Virus record (IMG/VR): IMGVR_UViG_3300030102_004176
Coordinates: 1 to 56,058 of that record
Direction: 5' to 3' (one strand)
Length of the DNA: 56,058 bases
Origin: a virus
Lineage: Duplodnaviria; Caudoviricetes
Both the position numbers and the translations under genes were made by a program. Within the stretch, counting starts at the first letter, position 1. The number at the start of each line of letters is the position of its first letter. Below, one piece after another: positions 1-26,946 of the stretch. The notes below the pieces were generated by a model. It was not told the origin of the DNA. It saw nothing but the letters and a program-made list of their open reading frames with translations, and searched no databases.

Positions 1-114
1 ACAGCTGGTACAGGTCCTGGTGTGAATCCATTTGCTCAAGCTGTTGGAGCAGGAGTGGGAGCTTATAAAGCTTTTGATCTTCTTGGTGGCACAGGTATAT
101 CAGGAAGTAAATAA
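1..114 (+). CDS. 3' end of a probable internal virion (DNA ejection) protein, partial
   Basis: Frame 1 is open from base 1 (TAGTGPGVNPFAQAVGAGVGAYKAFDLLGGTGISGSK*). Its TAA overlaps the next ATG (TAATG). Gly/Ala-rich C-terminus. Confidence 0.65.
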   Translation, partial: TAGTGPGVNPFAQAVGAGVGAYKAFDLLGGTGISGSK

Positions 115-2750: not shown

Positions 2751-5700
2751 ACATAGCAGAATTACAAAAGTCTTTCGACAACTTTGAGTTTGACCCTTCA
2801 CAGTATGGTGAAGAAGAATTGCAAGCTATAGATCAAGCTTTCAAAGGCGGAGTGTTACAAAACTTTTCTGGAGTTGGTCAATACCAAGGCGTAAGACAGT
2901 CTGCACAAAAAGATATTGCTAAAGGTATACAGCAAGAAGAAGAAACAGTTCCTGGTGTTACAATACCTGGTGTTGGCACAGTAATGACAGAAAAAGCTAG
3001 CTTTGAAACTTTTGGAGATGTAGCTGGCTCTTTCATACCTTATATTATGGATAGACAAAAGCTTATTGATGCCTTTAATCCAGAAACAAGTAGACAATTT
3101 GGTGTAAATTATAGAAAAGGTTTTGTTCAAAAAACTGCTGATTTAGCATCTAAACTTGAAAAGATACCTATGGTGAAACGTTTTGGAATGTTAGGTAGAA
3201 TGTTTGCTAGAACTGTAGGTACACTGGGAAATGCAGTTAGAAAAACTGATGATTTCTTAAAATATGGTGCAACACAAGCTACAAAAACAGAATTAAAATC
3301 TATTACTGGTGGAGCTTTAGGAGCAGCTGCGGGTTCTACTGCTTTTGACACAGTAAATAATTTACAAAAAGATTTTGCAGTTGGTGTTCAATATGATCTA
3401 GCTGATGTAGCTGAGAATGAAAAAGATAAATTATCTCCAGTACAAAGAACATTAGCAAATGCAATGGAGGCAGCTAAAAACTCTTTATTGTGGGCAGGTG
3501 GTATGAACGCTTTTGCTGAAGGGGCAGGTATTACAGCTAAAGCTTTTGCAAAGAAACTTACATCAACAGGTACACCAGAATCAAAAGAAGTTGGTGAGTT
3601 AGCAAAAAAATATGGTATTAATTTAAATTTAGGTCAAGCTGCAAAAGAGGGTGGTATCTTCGGTAACTTTATTAAAACGTATTTTGAAACTCTTGGTATT
3701 ATGCCAGGTGTTGCAGTGGTTGGTAAAAGACAAAGAGCACCACAAGAAAAAAAAGTAGGTGAAGCTATGTTTGAGTTTGCAGAAAACTTTGCACCTGTGA
3801 CCACGGCTCGCATCTTAGGGTATGAGGCTTTAGATGTAATAGATAACAATTACATACAATACATGAATTTGATTGATGAGGGTTTCAAACAACTGAAAAA
3901 TGAAGCCGATGCTATGGGTAATCCAAGAATGATACCAACTACCAAATTAAGAGAAATGGCTCAAGAATATATGGGCGATCTAAAAGATTTTGAAATTGGT
4001 AAATTAGGTTTAGACGAAGATAAAAGACTTTTTAAAATGTTAGCTAAAAACGACCCTGTCAATGCTTTGTTCTTAAAATTTGCAGATCAAGGTATATTTG
4101 ATGATAAATTTTTTCTTACACCAAAAGAATATTTACAACTTAGAAAAGATATAAATAAGTCTGTGAAAATGTCACCTAACAACAGATCAATACTACAAGC
4201 AGCCACAGGACTAAGAAGAGGTCTGGAACAAGATCTTGGATCTGTAGGACAGCCAGCTGTTCAACAACAAATATTACAAAAAAGTCCAGATTTTGCTGGA
4301 AAACAATTTGCGAACGCTGCTGAAAAAAATAAATTTATGGAAGATTCAGCTAAAAATCTTGAAGTTTTTGGAAATGAATTAATAAACAAATTTCATATGT
4401 ATTCTGCAATTACATCACCTTTTGAAAGTATGACAGCTAAAGAATTAAAAAAATTTGGTGACTATCTTTTTTCAGCCAAATCTGAACTAGGTGTTATGGG
4501 AGAGGCAAAACAAGTGCCTAGTAAAATGTTTGACTCTGTGATTACAGGTATTTTAAGAGATGGATCACCTGAAGCGTTGAATGAACTTAGGTTTTTAGTG
4601 GGAGCGACTGATAAAGGTTTTACTCGTACAGTAAAAGAAACTCTACCAGATGGTAAAGTTGTAGATAAGCAAATTAAAGTCGGTGAAAACTTTATGAACA
4701 AACTTACTTCACGATTTATTTATGATGCATTTTTTAAATCTTTTGCAAAACAACCTGATGAAACTCTAGCTAGAAACTTGGAATTATTTAAAGATCTACA
4801 AGAAAAAGGTATGGCACGAGGTGTGTTTGCTGACGAAGTATTAGATGCTGCAGGAGTGGCTGATATTGCAAAACTTAAAGAAATTCAAGCTGAAAAGACT
4901 ATGGCTAATAATGTAGAAAGAATTACCAAAGAACAAATAGAAGTAAACTTAACACCAGAAGGTTTAGGTGAATTTCAAGGTATGGATGTTTTAAGAAAAA
5001 ATTTAGGTTTAAATAATGCTGACGGCAGTGTAAATCAAGCAGGTAGAGAAAAACTACAAATATTGTTTGGCACTGGTGAAAAGGGTGCAAAACAATTAAA
5101 AGATTTAGAAGACTTTTTAGATGTTGTAGAAAGATTTAATTCCCAGTCTATTGGTGAGAGTAGCCGATTCCTTACTCGAAGAATTGGCTTGACAGGTTTA
5201 TCCTTAACAGCTGGTACCATAGGTGCTTTTACAGGTGGTCTAGGAGTTGGTTTTATGGGTCTAATCTTGACTCCTTTATTATTAAGAGGTGTTGGTGGTT
5301 TGGTATCAAACCCTAAATATATGAAAGCTTTACTAGATGTTTACACACCTGATGAAAGATTAGCTCGACTTGGTAAAGGTTCTTTTAAAGATGCTCCTTT
5401 TATTGATCCTCTTCAACCGCTCGGTAAATATTTATCACCATCAAAAAGAAGATCATTAGGAATTTTATTAAATTATTTTAAAAGTTCAGAAGATGAAGTT
5501 CCTATAGACCCTGATACTATGACAGCAGAACAAATAAGAGATTATCTTTCAAACAAAGTAAGAACTATGGTCCCTAACACAGCTATGAAAATGTCTGATC
5601 TACCACCTAATCAAATTAAAAAAATGTTTCCTGATGTGCACCTTTATCAGAATTCATCTTTAGAAGATAGAGCAAAGTATGATGAAATACTTGCTGGTGG

Positions 5701-5965
5701 TATTAAAGCAAGAGCATTCACAGATGCAGTGCGTGATGCTGATAATGAAAGTGCCGTAAGAAATGTAAGCTTAGATGCGATGATCAGAAATCCTCAAGCT
5801 ATGCAACTTGCACAAAGTGCTCCTAGTGCACCAAGACAAGAAGAAATGACCACGCCTCAGCAGCCAGCTGCAACAGGTATGCAAAGACAAGGATTGTTTG
5901 CATCTCTATTTCCTAATGATCCTACTTTACAAATGTTAAGTCAGAGGAAACAAAACAATGCCTGA
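2747..5965 (+). CDS. large internal virion/ejection protein (putative)
   Basis: 1072 aa ORF with ATGA overlap and a Gly-rich hydrophobic segment (GLSLTAGTIGAFTGGLGVGFMGLIL), as expected for podovirus ejection proteins. Confidence 0.6.
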   Translation: MNIAELQKSFDNFEFDPSQYGEEELQAIDQAFKGGVLQNFSGVGQYQGVRQSAQKDIAKGIQQEEETVPGVTIPGVGTVMTEKASFETFGDVAGSFIPYIMDRQKLIDAFNPETSRQFGVNYRKGFVQKTADLASKLEKIPMVKRFGMLGRMFARTVGTLGNAVRKTDDFLKYGATQATKTELKSITGGALGAAAGSTAFDTVNNLQKDFAVGVQYDLADVAENEKDKLSPVQRTLANAMEAAKNSLLWAGGMNAFAEGAGITAKAFAKKLTSTGTPESKEVGELAKKYGINLNLGQAAKEGGIFGNFIKTYFETLGIMPGVAVVGKRQRAPQEKKVGEAMFEFAENFAPVTTARILGYEALDVIDNNYIQYMNLIDEGFKQLKNEADAMGNPRMIPTTKLREMAQEYMGDLKDFEIGKLGLDEDKRLFKMLAKNDPVNALFLKFADQGIFDDKFFLTPKEYLQLRKDINKSVKMSPNNRSILQAATGLRRGLEQDLGSVGQPAVQQQILQKSPDFAGKQFANAAEKNKFMEDSAKNLEVFGNELINKFHMYSAITSPFESMTAKELKKFGDYLFSAKSELGVMGEAKQVPSKMFDSVITGILRDGSPEALNELRFLVGATDKGFTRTVKETLPDGKVVDKQIKVGENFMNKLTSRFIYDAFFKSFAKQPDETLARNLELFKDLQEKGMARGVFADEVLDAAGVADIAKLKEIQAEKTMANNVERITKEQIEVNLTPEGLGEFQGMDVLRKNLGLNNADGSVNQAGREKLQILFGTGEKGAKQLKDLEDFLDVVERFNSQSIGESSRFLTRRIGLTGLSLTAGTIGAFTGGLGVGFMGLILTPLLLRGVGGLVSNPKYMKALLDVYTPDERLARLGKGSFKDAPFIDPLQPLGKYLSPSKRRSLGILLNYFKSSEDEVPIDPDTMTAEQIRDYLSNKVRTMVPNTAMKMSDLPPNQIKKMFPDVHLYQNSSLEDRAKYDEILAGGIKARAFTDAVRDADNESAVRNVSLDAMIRNPQAMQLAQSAPSAPRQEEMTTPQQPAATGMQRQGLFASLFPNDPTLQMLSQRKQNNA

Positions 5966-9873: not shown

Positions 9874-9893
9874 TATATTGGAAAGGAGTTCTT

Positions 9894-10441: not shown

Positions 10442-11242
10442 ATGAACCAAGTCGCAACGAAAAAAGAAAACGCAGTACAATCTGTATCTGCTCTTGAAGA
10501 ATTTGCAGGACAAGGTGCTGAAAATATCACAGCTCGTGATACTAAGCTTCCTATTCTTAAAATTCTTTATTCTAACTCACCAGTGCTTGATGAAAGTGAT
10601 GGTAAATTTAACGAAAAAGCAAGACAAGGTGATATCTATAATGAAATCACAGGGTCCTTATATAAAGGTAAAGATGGAGTAATTGTTGTTCCGTGTTTAT
10701 ATATAAATACTTTCAATGAGTGGAAAGATAGGGGTGATTCTCCGGGACGTCCTATTGCCATACATACTGATCCATCTATTTTAAGACAAACGTCACGAGG
10801 TGATGATGGCAAAGATAGATTAGAAAATGGTAATTACATCGAAGACACAGGTAATCATTTTGTTTATATATTGAACAAAGATTATGAGCCTGTTGAAAGT
10901 GCTTTAATTACTATGAAATCTACGCAAAAGAAAAAATCTAAACTATGGAATTCTATGATTCAATCAAGAAGAATGAAAGGTAAAAATGGTTTTTTCTGTC
11001 CACCTTCTTGGGCAACAGCTTACAAACTAACTACGACAAAAGAGTCTAATTCACAAAACTCTTGGTATGGTTGGGTATGTGAGTTTGATAAAATTATAGC
11101 TGACTATGAAAAAACTTTACAAGTTACAAAAGATTTTTACGAAGGCGCTAAGTCATCTGAAATCTTTGGTAAAGTTGATTTCGGTCAAGAAAATGCTATG
11201 AACGAAACAAAGCCTAAAGAAAGTGGAGACGTACCCTTCTAA
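10442..11242 (+). CDS. single-stranded DNA-binding protein (putative)
   Basis: 266 aa ending in the acidic-aromatic tail ESGDVPF, directly upstream of the primase. Confidence 0.7.
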   Translation: MNQVATKKENAVQSVSALEEFAGQGAENITARDTKLPILKILYSNSPVLDESDGKFNEKARQGDIYNEITGSLYKGKDGVIVVPCLYINTFNEWKDRGDSPGRPIAIHTDPSILRQTSRGDDGKDRLENGNYIEDTGNHFVYILNKDYEPVESALITMKSTQKKKSKLWNSMIQSRRMKGKNGFFCPPSWATAYKLTTTKESNSQNSWYGWVCEFDKIIADYEKTLQVTKDFYEGAKSSEIFGKVDFGQENAMNETKPKESGDVPF

Positions 11243-16692: not shown

Positions 16693-16947
16693 ATGAAAAC
16701 ATTTATTAAATCAAAAAGAACAATAAGTTTTTTACAACAAATAGAAAAGGCTCTACGACAAGTTGAAGCCACTGATTTTAGGGGCAATCCTTATGATGAT
16801 GGTGATGTCGCTGAGCATGTGAAAGATTTTAAAAAAATTGTATATCAATGTCCTGACACAGGTGTAGAACATCAAGTATTTGGCACAGATTTAGCAGCAG
16901 CTATGATAAAATCAGAAAACTTGGCTAAATGTGGGCAAGATGACTAA
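16693..16947 (+). CDS. hypothetical protein
   Basis: 84 aa ORF directly after the promoter, overlapping the next gene. Confidence 0.65.
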   Translation: MKTFIKSKRTISFLQQIEKALRQVEATDFRGNPYDDGDVAEHVKDFKKIVYQCPDTGVEHQVFGTDLAAAMIKSENLAKCGQDD

Positions 16948-17785
16948 CCCTTTTTTGTTAGAAACTCCTGGTGTCATAAACTTTTCCGGAGGCAGAACGT
17001 CTGGCTTTATGTTGCGAAAAATACTAGATGCTTTCGATGATAAGCTACCAAAAGATTTACCCGTTTGTTTTGCTAACACCGGTAAAGAGATGCCACAAAC
17101 TTTAGATTTTGTGCACGAGTGCTCTACAAAATGGAGTGTTCCTATTGTGTGGATGGAGTGGGATGATCAATCAGAAAACCATTTAAAAATTGTTGATTAT
17201 GAAACAGCATCAAGAAAAGGTGAACCTTATGAAAAATTAATAGACAGTAAAAGATTTTTACCTAACCCTGTTACAAGATATTGTACGTCTTATTTAAAAA
17301 TTAAAACTATGCGGGCATATTGTATGTTTCATTTAGGTTTTGAACATTGGATGTCTTATGTGGGTCTTAGATATGATGAGCCACATAGGGTAGCTAGACT
17401 GTCCAATCGTAATAAAAAAGAAAGATGGGAAACAGAAGCACCTTTACATAATGCAAAAATTACAGTGCAAAATGTTTTTGATTTCTGGAAAGATAATGAT
17501 TTTGATTTACGTTTACCAAATATTGGTGGTAAAACACCACAAGGTAATTGTGATTTGTGTTTTTTAAAAGGTGCAAACACAATAAAAAATATAATGAAAT
17601 CAGACCCAAAATTAGCTGATTGGTGGATATCTCAAGAAAGTAAAAAGATGGGCACGGGAAATGATCGTGCTGCATACTTTCGTAAGGACAGACCAAGCTA
17701 CGCTAAATTACTACAAAACACTGAAAATCAACTTGAATTATTTGAGTTTGATCAAGCAACCGATACATGTTTTTGTCACGATTAG
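16940..17785 (+). CDS. PAPS/APS reductase-family (PP-loop) protein
   Basis: FSGGRTSG PP-loop, FANTGKE, RYCTSYLKI, GLRYDE..R, GNCDLCFLKG, C-terminal CFC. Confidence 0.85.
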   Translation: MTNPFLLETPGVINFSGGRTSGFMLRKILDAFDDKLPKDLPVCFANTGKEMPQTLDFVHECSTKWSVPIVWMEWDDQSENHLKIVDYETASRKGEPYEKLIDSKRFLPNPVTRYCTSYLKIKTMRAYCMFHLGFEHWMSYVGLRYDEPHRVARLSNRNKKERWETEAPLHNAKITVQNVFDFWKDNDFDLRLPNIGGKTPQGNCDLCFLKGANTIKNIMKSDPKLADWWISQESKKMGTGNDRAAYFRKDRPSYAKLLQNTENQLELFEFDQATDTCFCHD

Positions 17786-18443: not shown

Positions 18444-18678
18444 TTGGTTTATCGTGACACTGTGGTTCGAATTAAATGACAAACTATATATGAAACATTA
18501 CCCTAATCATTTGATTAGTGATTGTAAAAATGCGGTAGTAGAACTTATTGATGTTTATGAGAAAGAATATCCATTACGAAAATTTCGTGCTGCAAAATGC
18601 AATAAACCCACTGATTGGGTAAGAAAGTATAAAAATAATGGTTGGGATAATTTTTTGTTTTATAAGGAGGAAAAATGA
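18436..18678 (+). CDS. hypothetical protein
   Basis: ORF in a tightly packed operon. Confidence 0.6.
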   Translation: MFDWFIVTLWFELNDKLYMKHYPNHLISDCKNAVVELIDVYEKEYPLRKFRAAKCNKPTDWVRKYKNNGWDNFLFYKEEK

Positions 18679-18851
18679 CTAAACGAAAATATATAATATG
18701 TGAAGAATGTAAAGGTAACGGATATATTCGCACTGATCATAATAAACCTATGTCAGCTGAAAACACACATATTTGTCCTGCGTGTCAAGGTGAAGGTGCA
18801 GTTGGAGATTGCAGAATAGACTATAATGACGAAGTTCAATACTGGTGTTAA
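18675..18851 (+). CDS. DnaJ-type zinc-finger microprotein, 58 aa (not in ORF track)
   Basis: RBS AAGGAGG. Two CxxCxGxG repeats: CEECKGNG and CPACQGEG. Confidence 0.8.
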   Translation: MTKRKYIICEECKGNGYIRTDHNKPMSAENTHICPACQGEGAVGDCRIDYNDEVQYWC

Positions 18852-18879
18852 TATTAATAAAAAAGAAAGGCAAAAAAAA

Positions 18880-19173
18880 ATGAAAAACAAAAAAACACAA
18901 ATGAAAGCAGAAGAAATGCACGAAATATATTTAGAGTTTGGAAAAAAATTTGCTGATATGTCAAAAAAATATAACGCTGAAGCACTATTAAAAGGGGGCG
19001 CCTTTGCTGCATTAGAGGGATTAATAGAATGTGCTCCTTCAAAACAAACAGCACTTGATAGTATTTTTGCTATGCTCGAATTAATAATAAATAAAAATGC
19101 AAAATCAGATGAAGAAAAAGTATTTAAAGTAGAAAGAGAAAAAATCCATGAATTAAGTAAAGAGGTTCATTAA
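18880..19173 (+). CDS. hypothetical protein, similar to 22466-22702
   Basis: RBS GAAAGG before ATG 18880; ECAP motif. Confidence 0.7.
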   Translation: MKNKKTQMKAEEMHEIYLEFGKKFADMSKKYNAEALLKGGAFAALEGLIECAPSKQTALDSIFAMLELIINKNAKSDEEKVFKVEREKIHELSKEVH

Positions 19174-19860: not shown

Positions 19861-20095
19861 AAAAGGATACGATAAAAAAATGGACAAAAAAATTGATTGG
19901 CAAGAGTTGATTGGTGGTGATAATGACACAATCATAGATCCCTCGACAATGGATCCTATTGATCGTATGCATTTCATTGATGGTATCCTTAATGAGTATC
20001 TCTCTTTTTCTAAATCATCAGATCCTCAGCTAACACAATTTACAGAAAAGTATTACACAGTTCTTACAGAATTAATACAGGTTTACGGGCACTAA
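19853..20095 (+). CDS. hypothetical protein
   Basis: Coupled ORF; start codon uncertain. Confidence 0.6.
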   Translation: MIEKGYDKKMDKKIDWQELIGGDNDTIIDPSTMDPIDRMHFIDGILNEYLSFSKSSDPQLTQFTEKYYTVLTELIQVYGH

Positions 20096-20562
20096 TGAAT
20101 CCATCACCACTTTTAATGCGAAAAATGGGTTTGAGGTTTGCAAGAAGTATTTTATCGTTTGATAAGTTAGAGTCAGAGGAGAAACTATGGCGATCTGTTG
20201 TAATAAATGCAATTGAAGATTGTATGATAGATCATAGTGACAGAAAACCATCATTAATTAAAATAGAAGCTCATAATTGGATAGTATCTAGAACAAAAGA
20301 TTTTGATTTAGTTTGCGCATGGGGCAGATTAGATCCTGATGATATTGAAGAATGTTATGTTAAAGCTTTAAAAAATTTACATATGCGTTTTACTCTTAGA
20401 CAATTAAAATGGTTTGATTATGACAAAATTTATAAAGAAATGTTAACGTCATCTCCACCTAAAAAAAAGAAATTAAGAAAAGACTTAAATGATTTGCGAG
20501 AAGTCGTAAAGAACACACCCACTACTTATATAAGTACAATTTTTGTTTCAGCACTTGTATAG
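20095..20562 (+). CDS. conserved hypothetical protein
   Basis: TAATG coupling; EEKLWRSVVINAIED...W...DFDLVC motif. Confidence 0.7.
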   Translation: MNPSPLLMRKMGLRFARSILSFDKLESEEKLWRSVVINAIEDCMIDHSDRKPSLIKIEAHNWIVSRTKDFDLVCAWGRLDPDDIEECYVKALKNLHMRFTLRQLKWFDYDKIYKEMLTSSPPKKKKLRKDLNDLREVVKNTPTTYISTIFVSALV

Positions 20563-20767
20563 TATTCATTTTTTTACAATTCCTTATATGTGTCAATATC
20601 ATAGCTGCAGATAAAAATAACATAGGGAAATGACCTCCCAATATTGACCAAGCAACCCAAAATATTTGAGAGAAAAAACCAAAAAGCGGTGCGTACCAAG
20701 ATTGATTGCCATAAATATAAATTGATATAACGGCAGTTACAGCGCAAAAAACTTCTAAATAAAACAT
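20522..20767 (-). CDS. small multi-pass membrane protein
   Basis: About three hydrophobic helices; SD GAGGT 10 nt upstream; leftward TTGACA promoter. Confidence 0.65.
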   Translation of the reverse strand: MFYLEVFCAVTAVISIYIYGNQSWYAPLFGFFSQIFWVAWSILGGHFPMLFLSAAMILTHIRNCKKMNTIQVLKQKLYLYK

Positions 20768-20777
20768 TGTTTATGAT

Positions 20778-20831
20778 ACCTCAAGCTAGCGGAAAGGCAA
20801 ATAGGTGTTAACAATTTGGCTAACTTGAGGT
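20778..20831 (-). ncRNA. candidate regulatory hairpin RNA (5' leader or antisense sRNA)
   Basis: 13-bp stem ACCUCAAGUUAGC/GCUAGCUUGAGGU is fully paired only on the minus strand (U-G wobble). Inner CAAAU/AUUUG stem and a CCUUUCC bulge. Confidence 0.55.
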
Positions 20832-20844
20832 TTGTGACAAGTTT

Positions 20845-20875
20845 ATTGTATAATTCATACTACAAAAAATGTCAA
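20845..20875 (-). promoter_or_regulatory. leftward sigma70-like promoter
   Basis: TTGACA(20875-20870)-17-TATACA, with an alternative TACAAT at 19 nt. Confidence 0.5.
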
Positions 20876-20906
20876 CAATTATTATTTTTTATTTTCCCAG
20901 TTTTTT

Positions 20907-21162
20907 ATAATGTCACTCCTTACAAACTTTTTTTTAAAAAAGTTCAAAACATAGACAAAAAACTAGGAAACTAGGAAAAATAGCAGAAAACAAGGAAATA
21001 TTAGAAAAAAAACTAGGAAAAAACTAGGAATTTTTTCCAAAAACTAGGAAAAATATCAATATATATTACTAAATTTAGTATTTTAATTCCAAAAAGTAGA
21101 AATCCTTATGGACAAAAAATAGAAACTTTTTTTAAAAAAAACTTTGTATATAAAGACATTAT
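20907..21162. repeat. AACTAGGAA direct-repeat array between ~40-bp imperfect inverted repeats (candidate origin or pac site)
   Basis: Exact AACTAGGAA at 20961, 20969, 21011, 21022, 21042; palindrome TACTAAATTTAGTA at 21067-21080; arms at 20907-20945 and 21122-21162. Confidence 0.75.
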
Positions 21163-21691
21163 GGTAAAAATAGGTATGCCACAAAGAAAAAGAGAAGTAA
21201 GAACTATTGATGATTTGACTGATAAACAAAGAAAGTTTATTGACATACTTGTAGATAACTGGGGTTCAATATCTAAAACAGATGCGTATTTGAAAGCTGG
21301 ATATGAAACAAAAGGTAGTAAGATAGATAAAGGAAGTGTTGCAGCCATTGCAAGCAAACTTACAAATCCAAAAATAAATCCTCATATTTGTAGATATCTT
21401 GAGATTAGGTTGCAACAGGAACAAGAGAAGTATGAAAAAGATAAACTTAGAAGATATAAAATATTTGAAAGATTAAGAAATGGTGCAGAAACTAAAGGTC
21501 AATATACTGGGGCTATAAATGCAGAGTTTAGAGCCGGACAATTGGCAGGACAATTTGTTGACAAAAAAGAAATAGCGCACACTACTTTAGAGGGTATGAG
21601 TAGAGATAAATTAGAAGAACGTTTAAAAGAGTTAGAAAATAAAATTAAAGACGCTGATAATATTATTGATGTGACACCAGAAGGTAAGTGA
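21161..21691 (+). CDS. terS: terminase small subunit
   Basis: LTDKQRKF...AYLKAGY...ASKL..P.I HTH-type signature; AINAE...GQ..G.FVDKKEI. Confidence 0.8.
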   Translation: MVKIGMPQRKREVRTIDDLTDKQRKFIDILVDNWGSISKTDAYLKAGYETKGSKIDKGSVAAIASKLTNPKINPHICRYLEIRLQQEQEKYEKDKLRRYKIFERLRNGAETKGQYTGAINAEFRAGQLAGQFVDKKEIAHTTLEGMSRDKLEERLKELENKIKDADNIIDVTPEGK

Positions 21692-22077
21692 TGAGAGAGT
21701 CCCAAATATGGAGACTTATTAACACGATTCAAAAGCCTTACCGAGATTGGCATTTAATAAGAATCGAATCCAGTACAATCAACGGAATCCCTGATGTTAA
21801 CGCTTGTATAGGTGGTAATGAGTTTTGGTTTGAATTAAAATCAAATGATGACAAGAATTATGGTATATCAAAGTATCAAATTAATTGGATCATCAAGAGA
21901 CAACGAGCTGGTGGCAAAGCTTTTATCTTGCATAACTCCCCCTTGAAGAGAGAGTTCAAAATTCTCGAGATCCGTGATTCTGGTCTCCCGTTTCCCGTTT
22001 CCCGTTTCCCGTACACTAAACCCGCTACCATTTTACCATCGATCATGATGGAGCTGGCCCTGCGCGCTGCAGCGTAA
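21688..22077 (+). CDS. VRR-NUC / Holliday-junction-resolvase-like nuclease
   Basis: ESQIW, RIES..NGIPDV, FWFELK, QINW...GG.AFIL. The C-terminus runs through the TTTCCCG repeat. Confidence 0.8.
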   Translation: MMRESQIWRLINTIQKPYRDWHLIRIESSTINGIPDVNACIGGNEFWFELKSNDDKNYGISKYQINWIIKRQRAGGKAFILHNSPLKREFKILEIRDSGLPFPVSRFPYTKPATILPSIMMELALRAAA

Positions 22078-22169
22078 ATTTGGTTTCCCGTTTCCCGTAC
22101 GAAGTCGCAGTTTTCTAGGACTTTTTCATTCCATTGGAGCTGGCCCTGCGCGCAGCGGGGAAGGTTCTG
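21981..22169 (+). repeat. tandem duplication of (TTTCCCG)n plus a GC-rich box
   Basis: TTTCCCG x3 at 21991-22011 and x2 at 22084-22097; TGGAGCTGGCCCTGCGCGC at 22049 and 22135. Confidence 0.9.
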
Positions 22170-22222
22170 TTCCCTGTAAAAGCACCCAGTTCCTTAATTT
22201 TCTTCACGCTGTAAAAAACTTG

Positions 22223-22290
22223 TTGACAGCGTTTGATCCCTGGTATATATATAAGCTGTTAACAATTTGTATATTAACCTTAATATAGGA
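22223..22290 (+). promoter_or_regulatory. early promoter 1 with conserved 33-nt leader
   Basis: TTGACA-17-TATATA, then GTTAACAATTTGTATATTAACCTTAATATAGGA (22258-22290), identical to 23223-23255. Confidence 0.8.
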
Positions 22291-22298
22291 AAAACTTT

Positions 22299-22469
22299 AT
22301 GTCCGAAAATTTATGCAGCTGCTGCAAGCAGTCAATAGAAAAAAATGCCAAAGATCAATTCTGGACCTTGGGACAAGAGGGCTGGCCATTGTTCAAAGGC
22401 AATATATGTGATGTGTGTCATGAAGAATGGCAGGCAGATATAATTAAAGCTAGGATGGTGCAAGCATGA
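22299..22469 (+). CDS. small Cys-rich (putative Zn-binding) early protein, 56 aa (not in ORF track)
   Basis: MSENLCSCCKQSIEK...ICDVCHEEW...; first gene after leader 1; ATGA coupling to the next gene. Confidence 0.75.
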   Translation: MSENLCSCCKQSIEKNAKDQFWTLGQEGWPLFKGNICDVCHEEWQADIIKARMVQA

Positions 22470-22702
22470 GTAAAAAAGACGAAAAACAGATTGATTGGGT
22501 TATGAGTGAAGTTAGTAAAATAATAAATCAAGCCCATGAAAAAAAATATGATTGTGTAAATGTGTGGCAAGGTCTTAACCAAACTGCAATTGAATATGGT
22601 TTTGATTGCGCTCCTACAAACACGAATGCAACTATGTTTACTCTCTTGAAATTAGTAGACAAACTTAAACATTTAGAAGAGGAAAGGTTAAAACATGACT
22701 GA
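22466..22702 (+). CDS. hypothetical early protein
   Basis: Coupled ORF with FDCAP motif. Confidence 0.7.
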   Translation: MSKKDEKQIDWVMSEVSKIINQAHEKKYDCVNVWQGLNQTAIEYGFDCAPTNTNATMFTLLKLVDKLKHLEEERLKHD

Positions 22703-22982
22703 TAACACTTACAACGGATGGACCAACTACGAAACATGGCGCGTGAAGCTTGAGATGATTGACAACTTTGCTAGTGTCGAGCACTTAGCTCCAGAATTTG
22801 ATCGTCGAGACTTAAAGGAGTATTGCACTGAGTTACTGGATGAAGAGTTTAGGACTCTAGAGCATATGCCTGTCCAGCGATTCGGTCGTGACTATGCGTA
22901 TGCGTTCTTGGATGCTGTCAACTGGGCAGAGATAGAACGTGCTTTAGTTCGTGATTACGAGGAGGACCAGCGGACCGCATGA
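22695..22982 (+). CDS. conserved phage early protein
   Basis: YNGWTNYETW...VNWAEI signature common in phage hypotheticals. Confidence 0.8.
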   Translation: MTDNTYNGWTNYETWRVKLEMIDNFASVEHLAPEFDRRDLKEYCTELLDEEFRTLEHMPVQRFGRDYAYAFLDAVNWAEIERALVRDYEEDQRTA

Positions 22983-23083
22983 TGGCGTTCATACTTACTA
23001 TAATAATAATGGCAATATTTTTTCCACGGCTGAGCGCTTTCTTAGCCGTGGTCATTGCCTGTATAGTTTTTTCATTTTTATAA
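22979..23083 (+). CDS. possible 34-aa hydrophobic membrane peptide
   Basis: MMAFILTIIIMAIFFPRLSAFLAVVIACIVFSFL; GAGGAGG upstream; ATGA coupling. Confidence 0.5.
   Translation: MMAFILTIIIMAIFFPRLSAFLAVVIACIVFSFL
23024..23051 (+). terminator. 11-bp hairpin closing early cassette 1
   Basis: CCACGGCTGAG-cgcttt-CTTAGCCGTGG followed by TCATT; the T-tract is weak. Confidence 0.45.
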
Positions 23084-23086
23084 CGT

Positions 23087-23169
23087 TTTCCCGTTTCCCG
23101 TTTGTGGAGGCTGCTCTTTCTTTTTTTCTCGTTCATTCGGTCTGCCAGGCGCAGCGGGGGAAGTTTCTG
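23087..23169 (+). repeat. (TTTCCCG)2 plus GC box, cassette 2 copy
   Basis: TTTCCCG x2 at 23087-23100; GCGCAGCGGGGGAAGTTTCTG resembles GCGCAGCGGGGAAGGTTCTG at 22150. Confidence 0.85.
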
Positions 23170-23188
23170 GAGCGTGAATATTTTTTTC

Positions 23189-23255
23189 TTGACTATGATT
23201 TTTTTGGTTCTATAATAGAGGAGTTAACAATTTGTATATTAACCTTAATATAGGA
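23189..23255 (+). promoter_or_regulatory. early promoter 2 with conserved 33-nt leader
   Basis: TTGACT-16-TATAAT followed by the exact 33-nt leader copy. Confidence 0.8.
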
Positions 23256-23262
23256 GACAAAA

Positions 23263-23838
23263 ATGGGTTTCGATTTATACGGACTTAATCCAAAATTAAA
23301 AGGCGTTCAACCTAGTATTGATTGGGCTACTGCTACTGATGAAGACAAAGACAAATATGTGAAAGCAAAAAATGTTTTTGAAGAAGAAAATCCTGGACAT
23401 TACTTTGGTAATAATGTTTGGTGGTGGAGACCATTAGCATATTTAATAGAAGATAAATGTAAAGATTTTTTAACTGACGAGCAAAGAAAAAGTTTACATT
23501 ATAATGACGGCAAAAAATATTCGGATAAGATTGCAGTTAAAATTGCAAACAGATTGCAGGAAGTCTTGGATAGTGGCGAGTTGCTTAAGTTAAAAGAAGA
23601 ACACGATGCAGAAATGCAGAAAGCCAAAGAACATAACGATATTATAGAAAGTAAAATGAAAGCAATAGTTGATGCTCACAACGGAGTTGCTCCAAAAGAT
23701 TTACCAAAAGAAGAATTTACAAATTGGCGTGAGCTTCAAAAACAAAAAAATTGGGCTGACTCTTATCCGTTTGATATCGACAACGTGAAGGAGTTTATAT
23801 TATTTGCTCGTTGTAGTGGAGGGTTTTCTATATGTTAA
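23263..23838 (+). CDS. conserved phage early protein
   Basis: MGFDLYG...YFGNNVWWWRPL...YPFDIDNVKEF..F...SGGFSIC; RBS AGGAGA. Confidence 0.8.
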   Translation: MGFDLYGLNPKLKGVQPSIDWATATDEDKDKYVKAKNVFEEENPGHYFGNNVWWWRPLAYLIEDKCKDFLTDEQRKSLHYNDGKKYSDKIAVKIANRLQEVLDSGELLKLKEEHDAEMQKAKEHNDIIESKMKAIVDAHNGVAPKDLPKEEFTNWRELQKQKNWADSYPFDIDNVKEFILFARCSGGFSIC

Positions 23839-24137
23839 AAGAACCAAAGGAAAATATAGCATTAACTTGTTCTGATTGTGGTTTAGAACAATATTTTAAA
23901 ATTAAAGAAATGGAGAAACAACTCAAAGAATTTGTTTACTGTATGTTTGAGGTTGACCACGAACACAAACACATTAATACTGAAAGAATGTGGGTTAAGA
24001 TTGAGTTTGGCGACCAAAAAAATGGAACAGGTTATTTGAGCAACCAACCTCAATTCATTTCTAATTTAAAAGAGGGTGATAGATGTTCTTTCTATACGAC
24101 GAAAGAAGGGATAACTAGAGCCGAGTTACAACAATGA
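23832..24137 (+). CDS. hypothetical protein
   Basis: Coupled ORF with CSDC and ERMWVKI motifs. Confidence 0.7.
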   Translation: MLKEPKENIALTCSDCGLEQYFKIKEMEKQLKEFVYCMFEVDHEHKHINTERMWVKIEFGDQKNGTGYLSNQPQFISNLKEGDRCSFYTTKEGITRAELQQ

Positions 24138-24205
24138 TGAGTTCCTTTCTTGAACTGCTAGGTGTATTCCTAGCAGTTCTCATTTTCTTTTTGCTAATCA
24201 GATAA
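24134..24205 (+). CDS. possible 23-aa hydrophobic peptide
   Basis: MMSSFLELLGVFLAVLIFFLLIR; ATGA coupling; overlaps the terminator hairpin. Confidence 0.4.
   Translation: MMSSFLELLGVFLAVLIFFLLIR
24152..24192 (+). terminator. rho-independent terminator closing cassette 2
   Basis: Perfect stem GAACTGCTAGG-tgtatt-CCTAGCAGTTC followed by TCATTTTCTTTTT. Confidence 0.65.
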
Positions 24206-24210
24206 ATATA

Positions 24211-24295
24211 TTTCCCGTATCCCGTTTGCCGTTCCGTTTGCCGTTTGCTGGTTTTCATCAACCAGCAGCGGTGGGCGCGCCTGGCGAAAACTTCT
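24211..24295 (+). repeat. degenerate TTTCCCG/TTTGCCG run plus GC box, cassette 3 copy
   Basis: TTTCCCG TATCCCG TTTGCCG TTCCG TTTGCCG, then GCAGCGGTGGGCGCGCCTGG. Confidence 0.75.
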
Positions 24296-24300
24296 ACCAG

Positions 24301-24404
24301 TAAAAAAATATCAAAAAAATAAAATTAAAAAAAATAAAAAAGTGTTTGGTGATACTATAAAAGTATGGTCTAATATATATGTGTTAACAATTAAACAAGA
24401 AAGG
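24301..24404 (+). promoter_or_regulatory. early promoter 3 region: A-tracts, GTGTTAACAATT leader, GAAAGG RBS
   Basis: Repeated A-tracts at 24301-24341; leader core at 24381-24392; -35 is poorly matched. Confidence 0.55.
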
Positions 24405-24412
24405 TAGTAATT

Positions 24413-24817
24413 ATGACACAATTAAAACTAAAAACTACTTACTTAACTAAGTTCAAGGAAGAATTTATTGTTAAGTATGGTGAACTAAAACAAGAAGTTT
24501 TAGATAAACAAAAAGTACTAAGTAATATGAAGTCTATGGTTTTAGAAGTATTTGATGATTTAAATACTTCTATGATTGAGATTACTAAATTACCTAAATA
24601 TAAAGGCACTACAATTTCTAAAATTACTAGAGAAAGTAGTTATGCAGTTAAGGGTGATGGCACTAAACTTCTTGATGCAAACAAACAACCTATTTTAATT
24701 TCTGGTAGAATAGACACTAAGAAGTTAAAAGAAAAGTATCCTAATGTTTATGCAGATTGTTTAAAGGCAGTTAAGTCTGTTGAAATAAAGTATGACATTA
24801 AGAAAGTTGGTAAATAA
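24413..24817 (+). CDS. hypothetical early protein
   Basis: RBS GAAAGG; RIDTKKLKEKYPNVY motif. Confidence 0.75.
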   Translation: MTQLKLKTTYLTKFKEEFIVKYGELKQEVLDKQKVLSNMKSMVLEVFDDLNTSMIEITKLPKYKGTTISKITRESSYAVKGDGTKLLDANKQPILISGRIDTKKLKEKYPNVYADCLKAVKSVEIKYDIKKVGK

Positions 24818-25074
24818 TGCCAAACTTATTAGATACTATTATTAATACTAATCTCACTACTATCAATGATAGTAGTGAGGTTGATCAACAACGAACTCAA
24901 ACTAATATCAACGACAATCCAACTCATCATTTAAACAATGCTCTCGTTGCAAAGATATTAGAGGATATAATCGTTGTTCATTGTAATAAATACCAACATA
25001 CTGATCAAGCTAAAGAATTATGGTCTGAGGTTGAACAAGCTATTGCTCAAGTTCGTATCCATATAGTGAGGTAA
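24817..25074 (+). CDS. hypothetical early protein
   Basis: TAATG coupling; followed by a terminator. Confidence 0.7.
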   Translation: MPNLLDTIINTNLTTINDSSEVDQQRTQTNINDNPTHHLNNALVAKILEDIIVVHCNKYQHTDQAKELWSEVEQAIAQVRIHIVR

Positions 25075-25092
25075 GTATTAATTATAATCAAG

Positions 25093-25125
25093 AAAAGGGA
25101 TTAGATATCTAATCCCTTTTTTTTT
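25093..25125 (+). terminator. rho-independent terminator, possibly bidirectional
   Basis: Perfect 28-bp palindrome AAAAGGGATTAGATATCTAATCCCTTTT followed by more T's. Confidence 0.85.
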
Positions 25126-25198
25126 GTCTACTACAATTCCCCAAATAACAACCTAATTAATAAAGTATTAGACTTCATTAAATTATTTTATGCTTATC

Positions 25199-25221
25199 TA
25201 CGGCTCTTAAAATCGGTCGTT
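25199..25221 (-). repeat. 23-bp element, inverted copy of 6627-6649
   Basis: TACGGCTCTTAAAATCGGTCGTT. Confidence 0.85.
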
Positions 25222-25434
25222 ATTAAATAAAACAATACAATTCCCACATAAAAACTAGGTTACGCAAACAGGTTACCTGTTTTTCATCTAGCGTTTCCGA
25301 GCGCGCGCGATCGCGGAAAAGAGACTCTGAATCCTATCCAAACACAAGATCTAGTATGTTTTTGTATTCCCACCTACAAGATATAGGTTCTTGCGACAAC
25401 GACAGCCTACGGCAAGATCAATACATACATATGT

Positions 25435-25463
25435 TTGCATTTTCTTATGACCTAGATTATAGT
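25435..25463 (+). promoter_or_regulatory. sigma70-like promoter for terL
   Basis: TTGCAT-17-TATAGT, 7 nt before ATG 25471; no SD. Confidence 0.55.
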
Positions 25464-25470
25464 GTTTTGT

Positions 25471-26946
25471 ATGTCAATTAACAATTTGACCACAGACAAA
25501 TTGAGGCTCGAAGTAGAGAGACTCTTGATAAAAAACATTAAACTGTGCCAAGATAATTTTTTATATTTTGTAAAAGAGATGTGGCCTGATTTTATATATC
25601 GTAAAACCAAACTAAGGGATAACTGGGGTCATCATCAAATCATAGCAAATGAATTTACTAAAGTAGCTTCAGATAAAAAAGGGAGGCTCATAATAAATAT
25701 GCCTCCTAGACACACTAAATCAGAATTTGCTTCAATTTATTTTCCGGCATGGATGATAGGGAAGTTTCCTAAAATGAAAATTATGCAAGTATCACATAAC
25801 ACAGAACTTGCAGTACGATTTGGTTCTAAGGTTCGAAACATTGTTGGTTCATCTGAGTATAAACAAATCTTTGGTGACGTCAGATTGCGAGAAGATTCAA
25901 AAGCCAAAGGTAGATGGGAGACTAATCAAGGGGGTGAATATTACGCAGCTGGCGTCGGGGCGTCCATCACGGGTCGTGGTGCGGACTTACTGATTATTGA
26001 TGATCCACACACGGAACAAGATTCTTTATCTGACATGGCGATGGAACGTGCTTATGAATGGTATGCTTCAGGTCCAAGACAGCGTTTACAACCTGGAGGT
26101 TCAATTTTATTAGTAATGACGAGATGGGCAGAAGATGATTTAACCGGTCGTTTATTGAAGGCTCAAACTGAACCGAAAGCAGATTCTTGGCGTCAAATTT
26201 CATTCCCAGCGATCCTCGGTTCAGGGAACCCAGTCTGGCCTGAGTACTGGAACTTAGAAGAATTAGAAAAGATCAAAGCATCATTACCGATACGAAACTG
26301 GTCTGCTCAGTATATGCAGAATCCAACCAGTGAGGAAGGTGCAATTTTAAAACGAGAATGGTGGCGACCTTGGAAAGGACCCATACCGAATTTGATGCAT
26401 GTCATACAAAGTTATGATACAGCGTTCAGTAAGAGAGAGACAGCTGACTATTCAGCCATAACAACTTGGGGTGTATTTTTTCCAGAAGAAGGTGGGGGAC
26501 CCAATATAATTTTACTTGATGCTTTACGGGGTAAGTATGATTTTCCAGAATTAAAAGCAGTCGCTTTAGATGCACATAAGTATTGGGAACCCGAAAGTAT
26601 TATTATTGAACAGAAAGCTAGTGGTGAACCTTTGACTCAAGAGTTTAGAAGAATGGGTATACCGGTCATACCATTTGTTCCAAGTAAGGGTAATGACAAA
26701 CATACACGTGTTAATGCGACCTCTCCTATTTTTGAAAGTGGTGCTGTATGGTATCCGTATGGTGAGCATTTTGCAGAAGAAGTGATAGAGGAGTGTGCTG
26801 CATTTCCAAATGGTGCAAATGACGATTATGTTGACTCAACGACTCAAGCCCTACTAAGGTATCGCCAAGGCAACTTTGTTGAGTTATACTCAGATTATAT
26901 AGATAACGAGGATAGACCTCCTAAGGAATATAGATATTATGGATGA
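25471..26946 (+). CDS. terL: terminase large subunit
   Basis: MPPRHTKS (Walker A), LLIIDDP (Walker B), MTRW, SYDTA and DDYVD nuclease motifs. Confidence 0.95.
   Translation: MSINNLTTDKLRLEVERLLIKNIKLCQDNFLYFVKEMWPDFIYRKTKLRDNWGHHQIIANEFTKVASDKKGRLIINMPPRHTKSEFASIYFPAWMIGKFPKMKIMQVSHNTELAVRFGSKVRNIVGSSEYKQIFGDVRLREDSKAKGRWETNQGGEYYAAGVGASITGRGADLLIIDDPHTEQDSLSDMAMERAYEWYASGPRQRLQPGGSILLVMTRWAEDDLTGRLLKAQTEPKADSWRQISFPAILGSGNPVWPEYWNLEELEKIKASLPIRNWSAQYMQNPTSEEGAILKREWWRPWKGPIPNLMHVIQSYDTAFSKRETADYSAITTWGVFFPEEGGGPNIILLDALRGKYDFPELKAVALDAHKYWEPESIIIEQKASGEPLTQEFRRMGIPVIPFVPSKGNDKHTRVNATSPIFESGAVWYPYGEHFAEEVIEECAAFPNGANDDYVDSTTQALLRYRQGNFVELYSDYIDNEDRPPKEYRYYG

Follow-up and report, generated by a model that had tools for sequence, protein, structure and literature searches.

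A hairpin in a pelagiphage membrane-protein leader is a candidate trans-acting antisense RNA with loop seeds matched to cassette leaders

The window analyzed here, that is, the whole stretch of 56,058 nt, is an HTVC023P-type pelagiphage, a virus type abundant in the ocean. On its minus strand, we read a leftward promoter in the sequence, composed of a -35 hexamer TTGACA (20870..20875) and a -10 hexamer TATACA (20847..20852) separated by a 17-nt spacer. The same layout, TTGACA-17-TATACA, is present again in diverged relatives. The promoter was missing from our consensus promoter scan because position 6 of TATACA is an A, and its RNA is predicted to start at about 20840-20837. The unit continues with a hairpin (20778..20831, minus strand), followed by a gene for an 81-aa membrane protein (20522..20767, minus strand), whose ATG at 20767 lies 3' of the hairpin.

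The 81-aa protein matches phrog_2421, a family without assigned function, and an alignment of its homologues contains 21 invariant columns. Pfam returned no match for any of 11 scanned sequences of alignment A1, this protein and 10 others, and PF04973 was found in only 11-22% of the members of the viral Atlas clusters nearest to it; a relationship to PnuC-like proteins of the NMN transporter family is only a lead. Neither a near-identity DNA search with the window nor tblastn with the 81-aa protein gave a match in the phage record collection; the gene is thus apparently missing from the cultured phages HTVC023P and HTVC027P.

The hairpin has a 13-bp stem with one G-U pair and a 28-nt loop. Its 5' arm (20830-20819) and 3' arm (20790-20779) form 12 pairs, or 13 when A20831-U20778 is counted, and the fold has a predicted energy of -22.1 kcal/mol (z -2.7; 1 of 200 shuffles was equally stable). 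The plus strand has an A-C mismatch in place of the G-U pair, U20823/G20786, so that the stem is complete only on the minus strand, as an earlier note on this DNA had proposed when it placed the stem behind a leftward TTGACA promoter. All the sequence features listed in that note are indeed present, with a few coordinates off by 1-2 nt. There is no U-run 3' of 20779, and the hairpin is absent from our list of terminator-like structures; it does not combine a G+C-rich hairpin with a directly following U-run, as an intrinsic terminator does. Leaders of the L009 and L013 types do show this combination, with a classical hairpin and U7 directly 5' of the AUG. When 20000-25500 was compared with Rfam at E up to 1, four weak matches appeared, none of them on 20778-20831.

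We collected 20 distinct versions of the hairpin from relatives on viral and metagenome contigs. Each has perfect arms of 12-22 bp with 1-6 G-U pairs, and because of these G-U pairs the gene strand gives the more stable fold in all 20. The arm sequences are wholly different between hairpin types, and their pairing is always kept; in the window, L010, and L028 types, alignable loops sit within unrelated arms. Since MAFFT did not yield a single structural register for all types, formal pair counts were restricted to one subfamily, GGUAG, and the window, L010, and L028 types were compared by eye. Within the GGUAG subfamily, 98% of the cells are paired and three pairs show double changes, compared with 15-60% of cells pairing in controls whose columns were slid by 1-3 positions. 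By eye, both sides have changed in 7 of the 12 stem pairs between the window and the L010 type, and none is broken. The compensatory arms between types, together with the greater stability on the gene strand in 20/20 variants, support the view that the hairpin is an RNA structure of the minus strand.

In every type, the hairpin lies across the region where the membrane gene starts or directly beside it, but the arrangement differs between types. In the window, a GAGG (20779..20782, minus strand), the putative Shine-Dalgarno (SD) sequence of the gene, lies within the 3' arm, 11 nt 5' of the ATG. This placement of the putative SD in the stem is seen in the window itself, but is not a conserved feature: the SD is absent from the arm in L010- and L028-type relatives, and in the L021, L019, L059, L065, and L009/L013 types it is the first in-frame AUG that falls within the 3' arm. 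The AUG of the L010, L027, and L028 types follows 8-12 nt after the end of the stem.

Two segments of the loop are complementary to sequences elsewhere in the genome. The first, seed 1 (CAAAUUGUUAACAC, 20805..20818, minus strand), is the complement of the 5' ends of cassette leaders and has exact complements on the plus strand at 22257-22269 (13 nt), 23223-23234 (12 nt), and 24381-24392 (12 nt), in agreement with the 12-13 nt of complementarity claimed before. Each of these sites lies 5 nt 3' of a -10-like hexamer, at a predicted transcript 5' end. They belong to three rightward cassettes. Cassette 1 (22223..22298, plus strand) has the promoter TTGACA-17-TATATA and a leader from about 22257 with TGTTAACAATTTG (22257-22269), preceding a gene at 22299. 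Cassette 2 (23189..23262, plus strand) has the promoter TTGACT-16-TATAAT (11 of 12 consensus matches) and a leader with GTTAACAATTTG (23223-23234), preceding a gene at 23263. Cassette 3 (24371..24412, plus strand) has a -10-like TAATAT, GTGTTAACAATT (24381-24392), and the SD GAAAGG (24399-24404), preceding a gene at 24413. The targets are 1.5-3.6 kb from the hairpin, and the promoters are divergent. The cassettes are modular and repeated: a 33-nt leader repeat is identical in cassettes 1 and 2, and repeats occur upstream as well.

The second segment, seed 2 (UUUGCCUUUCC, 20791..20801, minus strand), is an anti-SD-like element. It is complementary over 10 nt to GAAAGGCAAA (18865..18874, plus strand) in the SD region of the gene whose start lies near 18880, and to GAAAGG at 9881, 17785, 22682, and 24399. 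In the relative L041, GGTGTTAACA is also found in the leader orthologous to that of the 18865 gene. CCUUUC or a close variant occurs in every leader variant that we inspected. The complementarity of the loop to GAAAGG-type ribosome-binding sites, described in the earlier note, is thus present. Structural genes mostly have AGGAG-like SD sites, and GAAAGG precedes start codons in the non-structural half of the genome only.

Both seeds are predicted to be unpaired, with opening costs of 2.4 kcal/mol for seed 1 and 0.4 kcal/mol for seed 2, compared with about 16 kcal/mol for the 3' arm of the window hairpin, and their predicted net binding is weak to moderate (-4 to -7 kcal/mol). We relied on duplex and opening energies because pairing inside a hairpin loop is beyond the scope of RNAcofold, which returned unrelated contacts when the leader RNA was folded with target leaders, and with control leaders too. 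Read from 5' to 3', the two seeds and their two target sites follow the same order, which precludes a single continuous duplex of both seeds with one leader. Within the window, the loop motif is not enriched (15 matches with up to three mismatches, 15.9 expected), and TGTTAACA, the core of the motif and a perfect palindrome at a fixed 5 nt from the -10 box, occurs 4 times where 2.6 are expected. The significance of the motif derives from the comparative data, not from the window alone. An 11-nt complement of the loop where the large-terminase gene begins (25477-25487) was read as chance because it is not kept in an L010-type relative. We also dropped a plus-strand mini-ORF following the GGAAAGG of the loop, whose frames span 2 codons in the L010 type, 7 in the window, and 10 in the L028 type.

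The earlier note had named in advance co-variation of loop and leader sequences across related phages as a test of its idea, and the outcome was positive. In six types, the loop motif changes along with the sequence just 3' of the -10 box, with exact complements of 10-16 nt. The leader complements are TGTTAACAATTTG in the window type (12-16 nt), TGTTAACAATA in the L010 type (11-12 nt), TGTTAAACA in the L028 type (10 nt, with an extra base on both partners), TTGTAATATTAACT in the L021 type (14 nt), GGTGTAAAAATGTC in the L027 type (14 nt), and TCAGTTGTCAA in the L133 type (11 nt). Five further types instead match the SD region of cassette leaders and adjacent bases, some of them combining a 5' single-stranded seed with a terminator-like hairpin. 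For L019, L059, L065/L125, and L031, CCUUUC and its 3' extensions match the SD and the bases upstream of it exactly over 10-11 nt; in the L013 and L009 types, the match to the SD region has one interruption (-18.4 and -22.4 kcal/mol, respectively). Across eight types, the leader of the cassette 2 ortholog varies together with the loop.

To quantify this correspondence, we compared cognate and non-cognate pairings. For loops against the leader of the orthologous gene in eight types, the cognate mean was -15.2 kcal/mol, compared with -9.9 kcal/mol for non-cognate pairs (permutation p = 5e-5), and an unbiased 12-type matrix gave -17.4 and -13.9 kcal/mol (p = 4e-5), although these p-values overstate independence because the types are related by descent. 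The cognate partner was the best in its row in 4/8 cases in the ortholog-leader matrix and in 3/12 in the unbiased matrix. The longest repeat between a loop and the upstream region was always in direct DNA orientation, that is, antisense at the RNA level. Repeat lengths within single loci are only modestly unusual, with empirical fractions of 0.01-0.09 in 8 of 12 loci and 0.27-0.995 in the other four; a Fisher combination over nine types gave p = 0.0013.

From the observed structure and its strand, the complementarity, and the co-variation, we infer an RNA that would be produced, would pair in vivo, and would repress. On balance, and with moderate confidence, we think that the hairpin RNA is a trans-acting antisense RNA repressing cassette messages, analogous but not homologous to c4 of phages P1 and P7. 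The regulatory RNA would be the 5' leader of the leftward transcript that encodes the membrane protein, and a stable hairpin at or near its 5' end would expose two single-stranded seeds in the loop. One seed would pair with the 5'-terminal ~12 nt of messages from several rightward promoter cassettes, and the other, CCUUUCC, would mimic the ribosomal anti-SD and complement the GAAAGG-type ribosome-binding sites of the cassettes. Acting either as an mRNA leader or as a processed piece, the RNA would pair in trans, lowering the translation of the cassettes or altering message stability. The different, mutually matched seed/leader pairs of related phages would then represent specificity types, as in P1/P7 c4. 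Located at the translation start of the membrane gene or beside it, the hairpin probably keeps the translation of that gene low too.

A shared DNA operator could produce much of the same pattern. A phage protein would bind the motif at the cassette +1 and in the leftward unit and co-evolve with it, the RNA complementarity being a by-product. A co-evolving repressor predicts site co-variation equally well, and both TGTTAACA and the L021-type TAATATTA are palindromes. Moreover, a constant 5 nt separates the site from the -10 hexamer in each of the three window cassettes as well as in the L010-type cassettes, and the 16-nt match of L041/L095 starts 2 nt after TATAAT, so that a few matched bases may precede the transcript start. 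Repressor operators do overlap promoters, and the asymmetric stoperators of cluster A mycobacteriophages are a short site repeated at or after promoters. Unlike these, the pelagiphage copy is held in the loop of a conserved hairpin, in a kept orientation opposite to transcription, and an operator leaves unexplained why the leftward copy should sit in the loop of a compensatory, strand-specific hairpin (20/20 variants). The motifs of the L027 and L133 types are not palindromic, and in five types the target is the SD region, which lies 30-40 nt past the promoter; since the SD is an RNA-level signal, these targets favor RNA pairing over a DNA site. In a non-exhaustive Pfam search of 30 window ORFs, we identified no repressor and no helix-turn-helix or other recognized DNA-binding family, only two small Cys-rich proteins (22299-22469 and 18675-18851). 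We regard an operator as rather unlikely.

The antisense reading also has to be weighed against the same RNA pairing with control running in reverse, in which abundant messages from the cassettes, whether of the phage itself or of a superinfecting sibling, would alter the translation or stability of the membrane-protein mRNA. The hairpin does overlap or abut the membrane-gene start in every type, with GAGG (window) or, in several other types, the AUG in the 3' arm, and opening that arm costs about 16 kcal/mol, so that some activator would help. However, the complementary stretches lie only in the loop or in single-stranded segments on the 5' side, reaching at most 1 nt into the stem (the 5' arm in L040), which leaves no path for strand invasion of the kind used by activating RNAs and toehold switches. 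The anti-SD-like seed would also be left without a role. We consider this direction of control improbable; of the two options raised in the earlier note, the toehold-like switch fares poorly, and the c4-like antisense RNA is the best-supported reading because of the loop-leader co-variation and the minus-strand RNA structure. Less probable still is a leader structure acting purely in cis, as a translation brake or attenuator, with the shared motif kept by cassette recombination and no function in trans. The hairpin and U7 directly 5' of the AUG in L009/L013 leaders would suit such a device, and the repeated modular cassettes, with their identical leader repeat and upstream repeats, and the whole-cassette gaps by which relatives in RNA-library contigs differ speak for recombination. 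Yet the window hairpin has no U-run and is not on the terminator-like list, repeats of 10-16 nt in unrelated flanks are probably too short to be homogenized by recombination, and the loop copy has kept pace with the leader motif across six or more different sequences.

Several known antisense systems share features with the proposed RNA. In ColE1 RNAI and R1 CopA, a hairpin loop presents the recognition sequence, and matched changes of loop and target give rise to incompatibility types. Both are cis-encoded and control replication, unlike the pelagiphage RNA, which is trans-encoded and predicted to control the translation of several genes. The c4 RNA has two loops and is processed. According to the review PMC12197685, c4 of P1/P7 is a trans-acting phage antisense RNA whose exposed loops pair around the target ribosome-binding site, and matched RNA/target changes define heteroimmune types. 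Such matched changes between related phages are found here as well, computationally. The pelagiphage seeds, which by prediction are unpaired, complement GAAAGG SDs and, over 12-13 nt, the 5' ends of the leaders. Unlike c4, with which it shares no sequence or structure homology detectable by Rfam (E up to 1), the pelagiphage RNA forms the leader of a divergently oriented gene for a membrane protein and carries both seeds in one loop. Its targets are the 5' ends and SDs of several separate cassette leaders rather than a site downstream in the same operon. In addition, the c4 phages are temperate plasmid prophages, whereas the pelagiphage group of the window is described as lytic in the abstract of PMC12753301.

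The same review text (PMC12197685) mentions P22 sar and lambda OOP, small phage RNAs that reduce the translation or stability of phage messages by pairing. These are cis-encoded and fully complementary, unlike the pelagiphage regulator, which lies 1.5-3.6 kb from its targets and uses a seed of 10-16 nt. It also mentions IsrK of prophage Gifsy-1, where one transcript serves as both regulatory RNA and mRNA (PMC12197685); the targets and mechanism of IsrK are unrelated, and the pelagiphage transcript would have a dual function of this kind.

Almost nothing is known about gene regulation in pelagiphages. A transcriptome study of this group (PMC12753301) reports that all early genes lack a known function and are arranged as a mosaic, and a narrow literature search (HTVC023P; pelagiphage with antisense RNA) found no description of the hairpin element. 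A conserved RNA regulator with specificity types would be a first handle on temporal control or superinfection exclusion. If the antisense reading is true, these phages hold a natural set of orthogonal RNA/target pairs, a directly testable question, and the pairing of an anti-SD mimic with a variable address sequence would be an economical way of targeting ribosome-binding sites selectively. A bolder and doubtful extension is that phages with the hairpin may use an RNA as the basis of immunity or incompatibility. The anti-SD mimic and a fast-diversifying seed would silence cassette genes, also in a superinfecting phage of the same type and not in other types, and the seed/leader types would be heteroimmunity groups under diversifying selection among co-occurring ocean phages.

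Finally, we inspected four RNA-library runs with word shares of 0.05 or less, two of which gave contigs and two none. These contigs, which carry no information on strand, ends, or transcription, come from relatives, mostly <90% identical.

The hairpin lies in the leader of an 81-aa membrane-protein gene (20522-20767, minus strand), the sole leftward gene of its region in a window whose genes run rightward almost everywhere. The record is a 56-kb viral contig with an estimated completeness of 94%, and its large terminase (25462-26946) is 75.6% identical to the counterpart in Pelagibacter phage HTVC023P. A rightward replication module (~9.9-16.4 kb) is followed by small rightward genes up to 20562; beyond the membrane-protein gene come an iteron-rich gap, the small terminase (21161) and a resolvase-like gene, then three rightward promoter-plus-leader cassettes (~22.2, 23.2 and 24.4 kb), and finally the large terminase and structural genes. 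Passages in PMC12753301 describe this phage type as lytic and the early genes of HTVC027P as all of unknown function and mosaically arranged.

On the minus strand, a -35 box (TTGACA, 20875-20870) and, after a 17-nt spacer, a -10 box (TATACA, 20852-20847), both read in the sequence, precede a 13-bp hairpin (20831-20778) with a single G-U pair that turns into a mismatch on the opposite strand. The fold beats 199 of 200 shuffles (z -2.7). The 28-nt loop contains CAAAUUGUUAACAC and UUUGCCUUUCC, and GAGG sits inside the 3' arm, 11 nt upstream of the membrane-gene ATG. Three sites are exactly complementary to the first loop motif, over 13 nt at 22257, 12 nt at 23223 and 12 nt at 24381; all three start 5 nt past a -10-like hexamer, where the promoter hexamers predict that a rightward transcript begins. 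The promoter, hairpin, GAGG and loop complements listed in the earlier note are all present in the window. Taken alone, none of the window's features stands far above chance; the case rests on comparison with relatives.

We collected 35 loci on viral contigs through the membrane protein, 60 by a protein-alignment search (many on contigs already in the first set) and 73 further loci by a metagenome scan. Homologues at 59-98% identity share the layout of promoter, structured leader and gene. Among 27 inspected loci whose homologues are mostly 39-47% identical (one 52%), 25 have the gene directly after same-strand sequence, judged by eye to contain no such leader; the element is thus a property of one phage group and not of the gene. 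The 81-aa protein and its scanned relatives had no Pfam match. The nearest Atlas clusters hold small viral proteins, 11-22% with the PnuC/NMN-transporter family, a lead towards a possible short, transporter-like membrane protein.

A script whose only criterion was the best stem upstream of the membrane gene returned 20 distinct hairpins with perfect arms (12-22 bp, 1-6 G-U pairs), and the gene-strand fold was more stable than the complement-strand fold in all 20. Types are named after related loci. The arms of the window type (CCUCAAGUUAGC / GCUAGCUUGAGG), the L010 type (GCGCAAGAGGCU / AGCUUCUUGCGU) and the L028 type (GUAGUCUGGGAU / AUCCUGGACUAC) are unrelated, while the loops between them align well. 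Between the window and L010 arms, both bases differ in 7 of 12 pairs and pairing is kept throughout; a near relative (L102/L104/L133) has both bases altered in one pair and A-U in place of G-U in another. Within a second subfamily, whose arms begin with GGUAG, 98% of cells pair, with double changes in 3 of 10 pairs, compared with only 15-60% of cells in controls slid by 1-3 columns. Together, these results support a hairpin that forms in RNA, on the strand of the gene.

When the leader region is compared with the rest of its locus, the longest exact repeat has one copy inside the loop in every type, and its second copy lies immediately after a -10 box of a divergent promoter. The two copies stand in direct DNA orientation, which is antisense at the RNA level. 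Exact complements measure 12-16 nt at three sites per locus in the window type and 12, 11 and 11 nt in the L010 type, where A follows TGTTAACAAT in the loop copy and two leaders, as against T in the window type. They measure 10 and 10 nt in the L028 type, with one extra core base in both partners, 14 and 10 nt in the L021 type, with a different motif, and 11 nt in the L133 type; the 14-nt complement of the L027 type is non-palindromic and differs from the window motif at 5 of 14 positions on both partners. The leader of window gene 23263, traced in orthologues of eight types, changes along with the loop. Loop and leader thus co-vary across related phages, the check suggested at the outset, with matched exact complements of 10-16 nt.

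Against the leaders of these orthologues, the predicted duplex energy of the loops averaged -15.2 kcal/mol for cognate and -9.9 kcal/mol for non-cognate combinations (permutation p = 5e-5), with the cognate leader topping its row in only 4 of 8 cases, and an unbiased matrix (12 types, stems masked, all upstream leaders) gave -17.4 versus -13.9 kcal/mol (p = 4e-5), with cognate row ranks of 2, 3, 8, 1, 3, 2, 7, 3, 1, 2, 9 and 1; these p-values are generous, since the types share ancestry. A random-segment control per locus placed 8 of 12 loci at fractions of 0.01-0.09 and the other four at 0.26, 0.27, 0.61 and 0.95-0.995 (nine types combined, p = 0.0013, likewise generous).

CCUUUC, or a sequence close to it, is also present in every inspected leader variant and complements the GAAAGG-type ribosome-binding sites of the genome's non-structural half; we take this element to resemble the pyrimidine-rich end of 16S rRNA. 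Co-varying bases adjoin it in several types. In L019 (CUUUCUCGUUA), L059 (CCUUUCUUUG), L065/L125 (CCUUUGUUGAA) and L031 (UCCUUUCGUU), the co-varying element matches the Shine-Dalgarno (SD) sequence and upstream bases of the same phage's cassette leaders over 10-11 nt. In the L013 and L009 types this seed comes at the 5' end, before a hairpin and a U-run, a predicted layout like that of a classical small RNA; the seeds of these two types match a cassette SD region with one interruption (-18.4 and -22.4 kcal/mol, respectively). This SD-centred signal is RNA-specific and hard to explain at the DNA level.

We propose that the leader RNA would act in trans: its 5'-end seed, its anti-SD seed or both would base-pair with the cassette leaders and thereby lower translation or alter the stability of cassette messages. 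Both loop seeds are predicted to be accessible, with net binding of -4 to -7 kcal/mol. Because they lie in the same order as their targets, they cannot form a single continuous helix with one leader; they may each address a different target or provide two contacts. A shared DNA operator is a possible source of the promoter-proximal motif, whose core is palindromic and whose spacing to the -10 box is fixed, but it would leave the hairpin, the non-palindromic types and the SD-matching types unexplained, and no DNA-binding family was found among 30 scanned ORFs.

The hairpin also covers or abuts the membrane-gene start region: the window type has GAGG within its stem, five other types have their first AUG within the 3' arm, and in three the stem ends 8-12 nt upstream of the AUG. 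The claim that it hides the ribosome-binding site therefore holds loosely, while the detail of an SD within the stem is not conserved across types. A purely cis role of the leader hairpin would leave the co-variation unexplained. The toehold-like switch raised in the earlier note lacks its defining feature, as no complementarity reaches into the stem; a sensor role of another kind is possible. For trans pairing, the closest analogue is the c4 RNA of P1/P7, which, as described in PMC12197685, shares exposed loop sequences, a ribosome-binding-site target and matched changes, the last defining immunity types in P1/P7. The hairpin had no match in Rfam and is not a c4 family member; unlike c4, it is the leader of a divergent membrane-protein gene, and the phage type and the number and kind of targets differ. 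We found no published description of the element in the literature on HTVC023P or pelagiphage antisense RNA.

Several other features of the window were recorded. Immediately upstream of the small-terminase gene, a 35-nt inverted repeat (20907-20941 / 21128-21162) encloses five copies of ACTAGGAA (20962-21050); these iterons occupy the same place in HTVC023P and several related loci, and the region 20907-21162 may be a replication origin or packaging site. A phosphoadenosine-phosphosulfate reductase-like auxiliary metabolic gene is encoded at 16931-17785 (Pfam E 8.9e-07, PHROG E 9.1e-51), and two very large ORFs at 114-5965 (878 and 1072 aa) matched no PHROG family at E up to 1e-5. Cassettes 1 and 2 share an identical 33-nt leader repeat (22258-22290 and 23223-23255) with an 8-bp hairpin right before the SD, leaving the first ~12 nt of the leader single-stranded. 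Runs of TTTCCCGT-like units and a G+C-rich repeat precede each of the three cassettes (21973-22177, 23076-23101 and 24207-24232), 120-160 nt upstream of the leader motif; the G+C-rich repeat is 43 nt long at 22049-22091 / 22135-22177, and these repeats may be binding sites or cassette boundaries. Across window positions 22283-24138, whole cassette segments are missing from RNA-library contigs of relatives (for example, from 22458 to 22980 and from 23835 to 24138), consistent with related phages differing in which cassette genes they carry. An additional 11-nt loop complement at 25477-25487 falls within the first large-terminase codons if ATG 25471 is the start; it is not conserved in an L010-type relative and is probably due to chance.

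HTVC023P (L001) itself has no membrane gene but does have a 10-nt leader motif of its own, with five exact plus-strand copies (10805-10925, 13056, 13766, 15284 and 16136). Four lie just before the SDs of cassette genes, and the fifth falls in the 3' UTR of the leftward gp20 transcript, beside a hairpin and then U10. The minus strand of this fifth region folds strongly (z -6.1), but with the anti-leader stretch paired; the region may encode an analogous anti-leader RNA or, alternatively, serve as leader to a 30-aa ORF on the plus strand.
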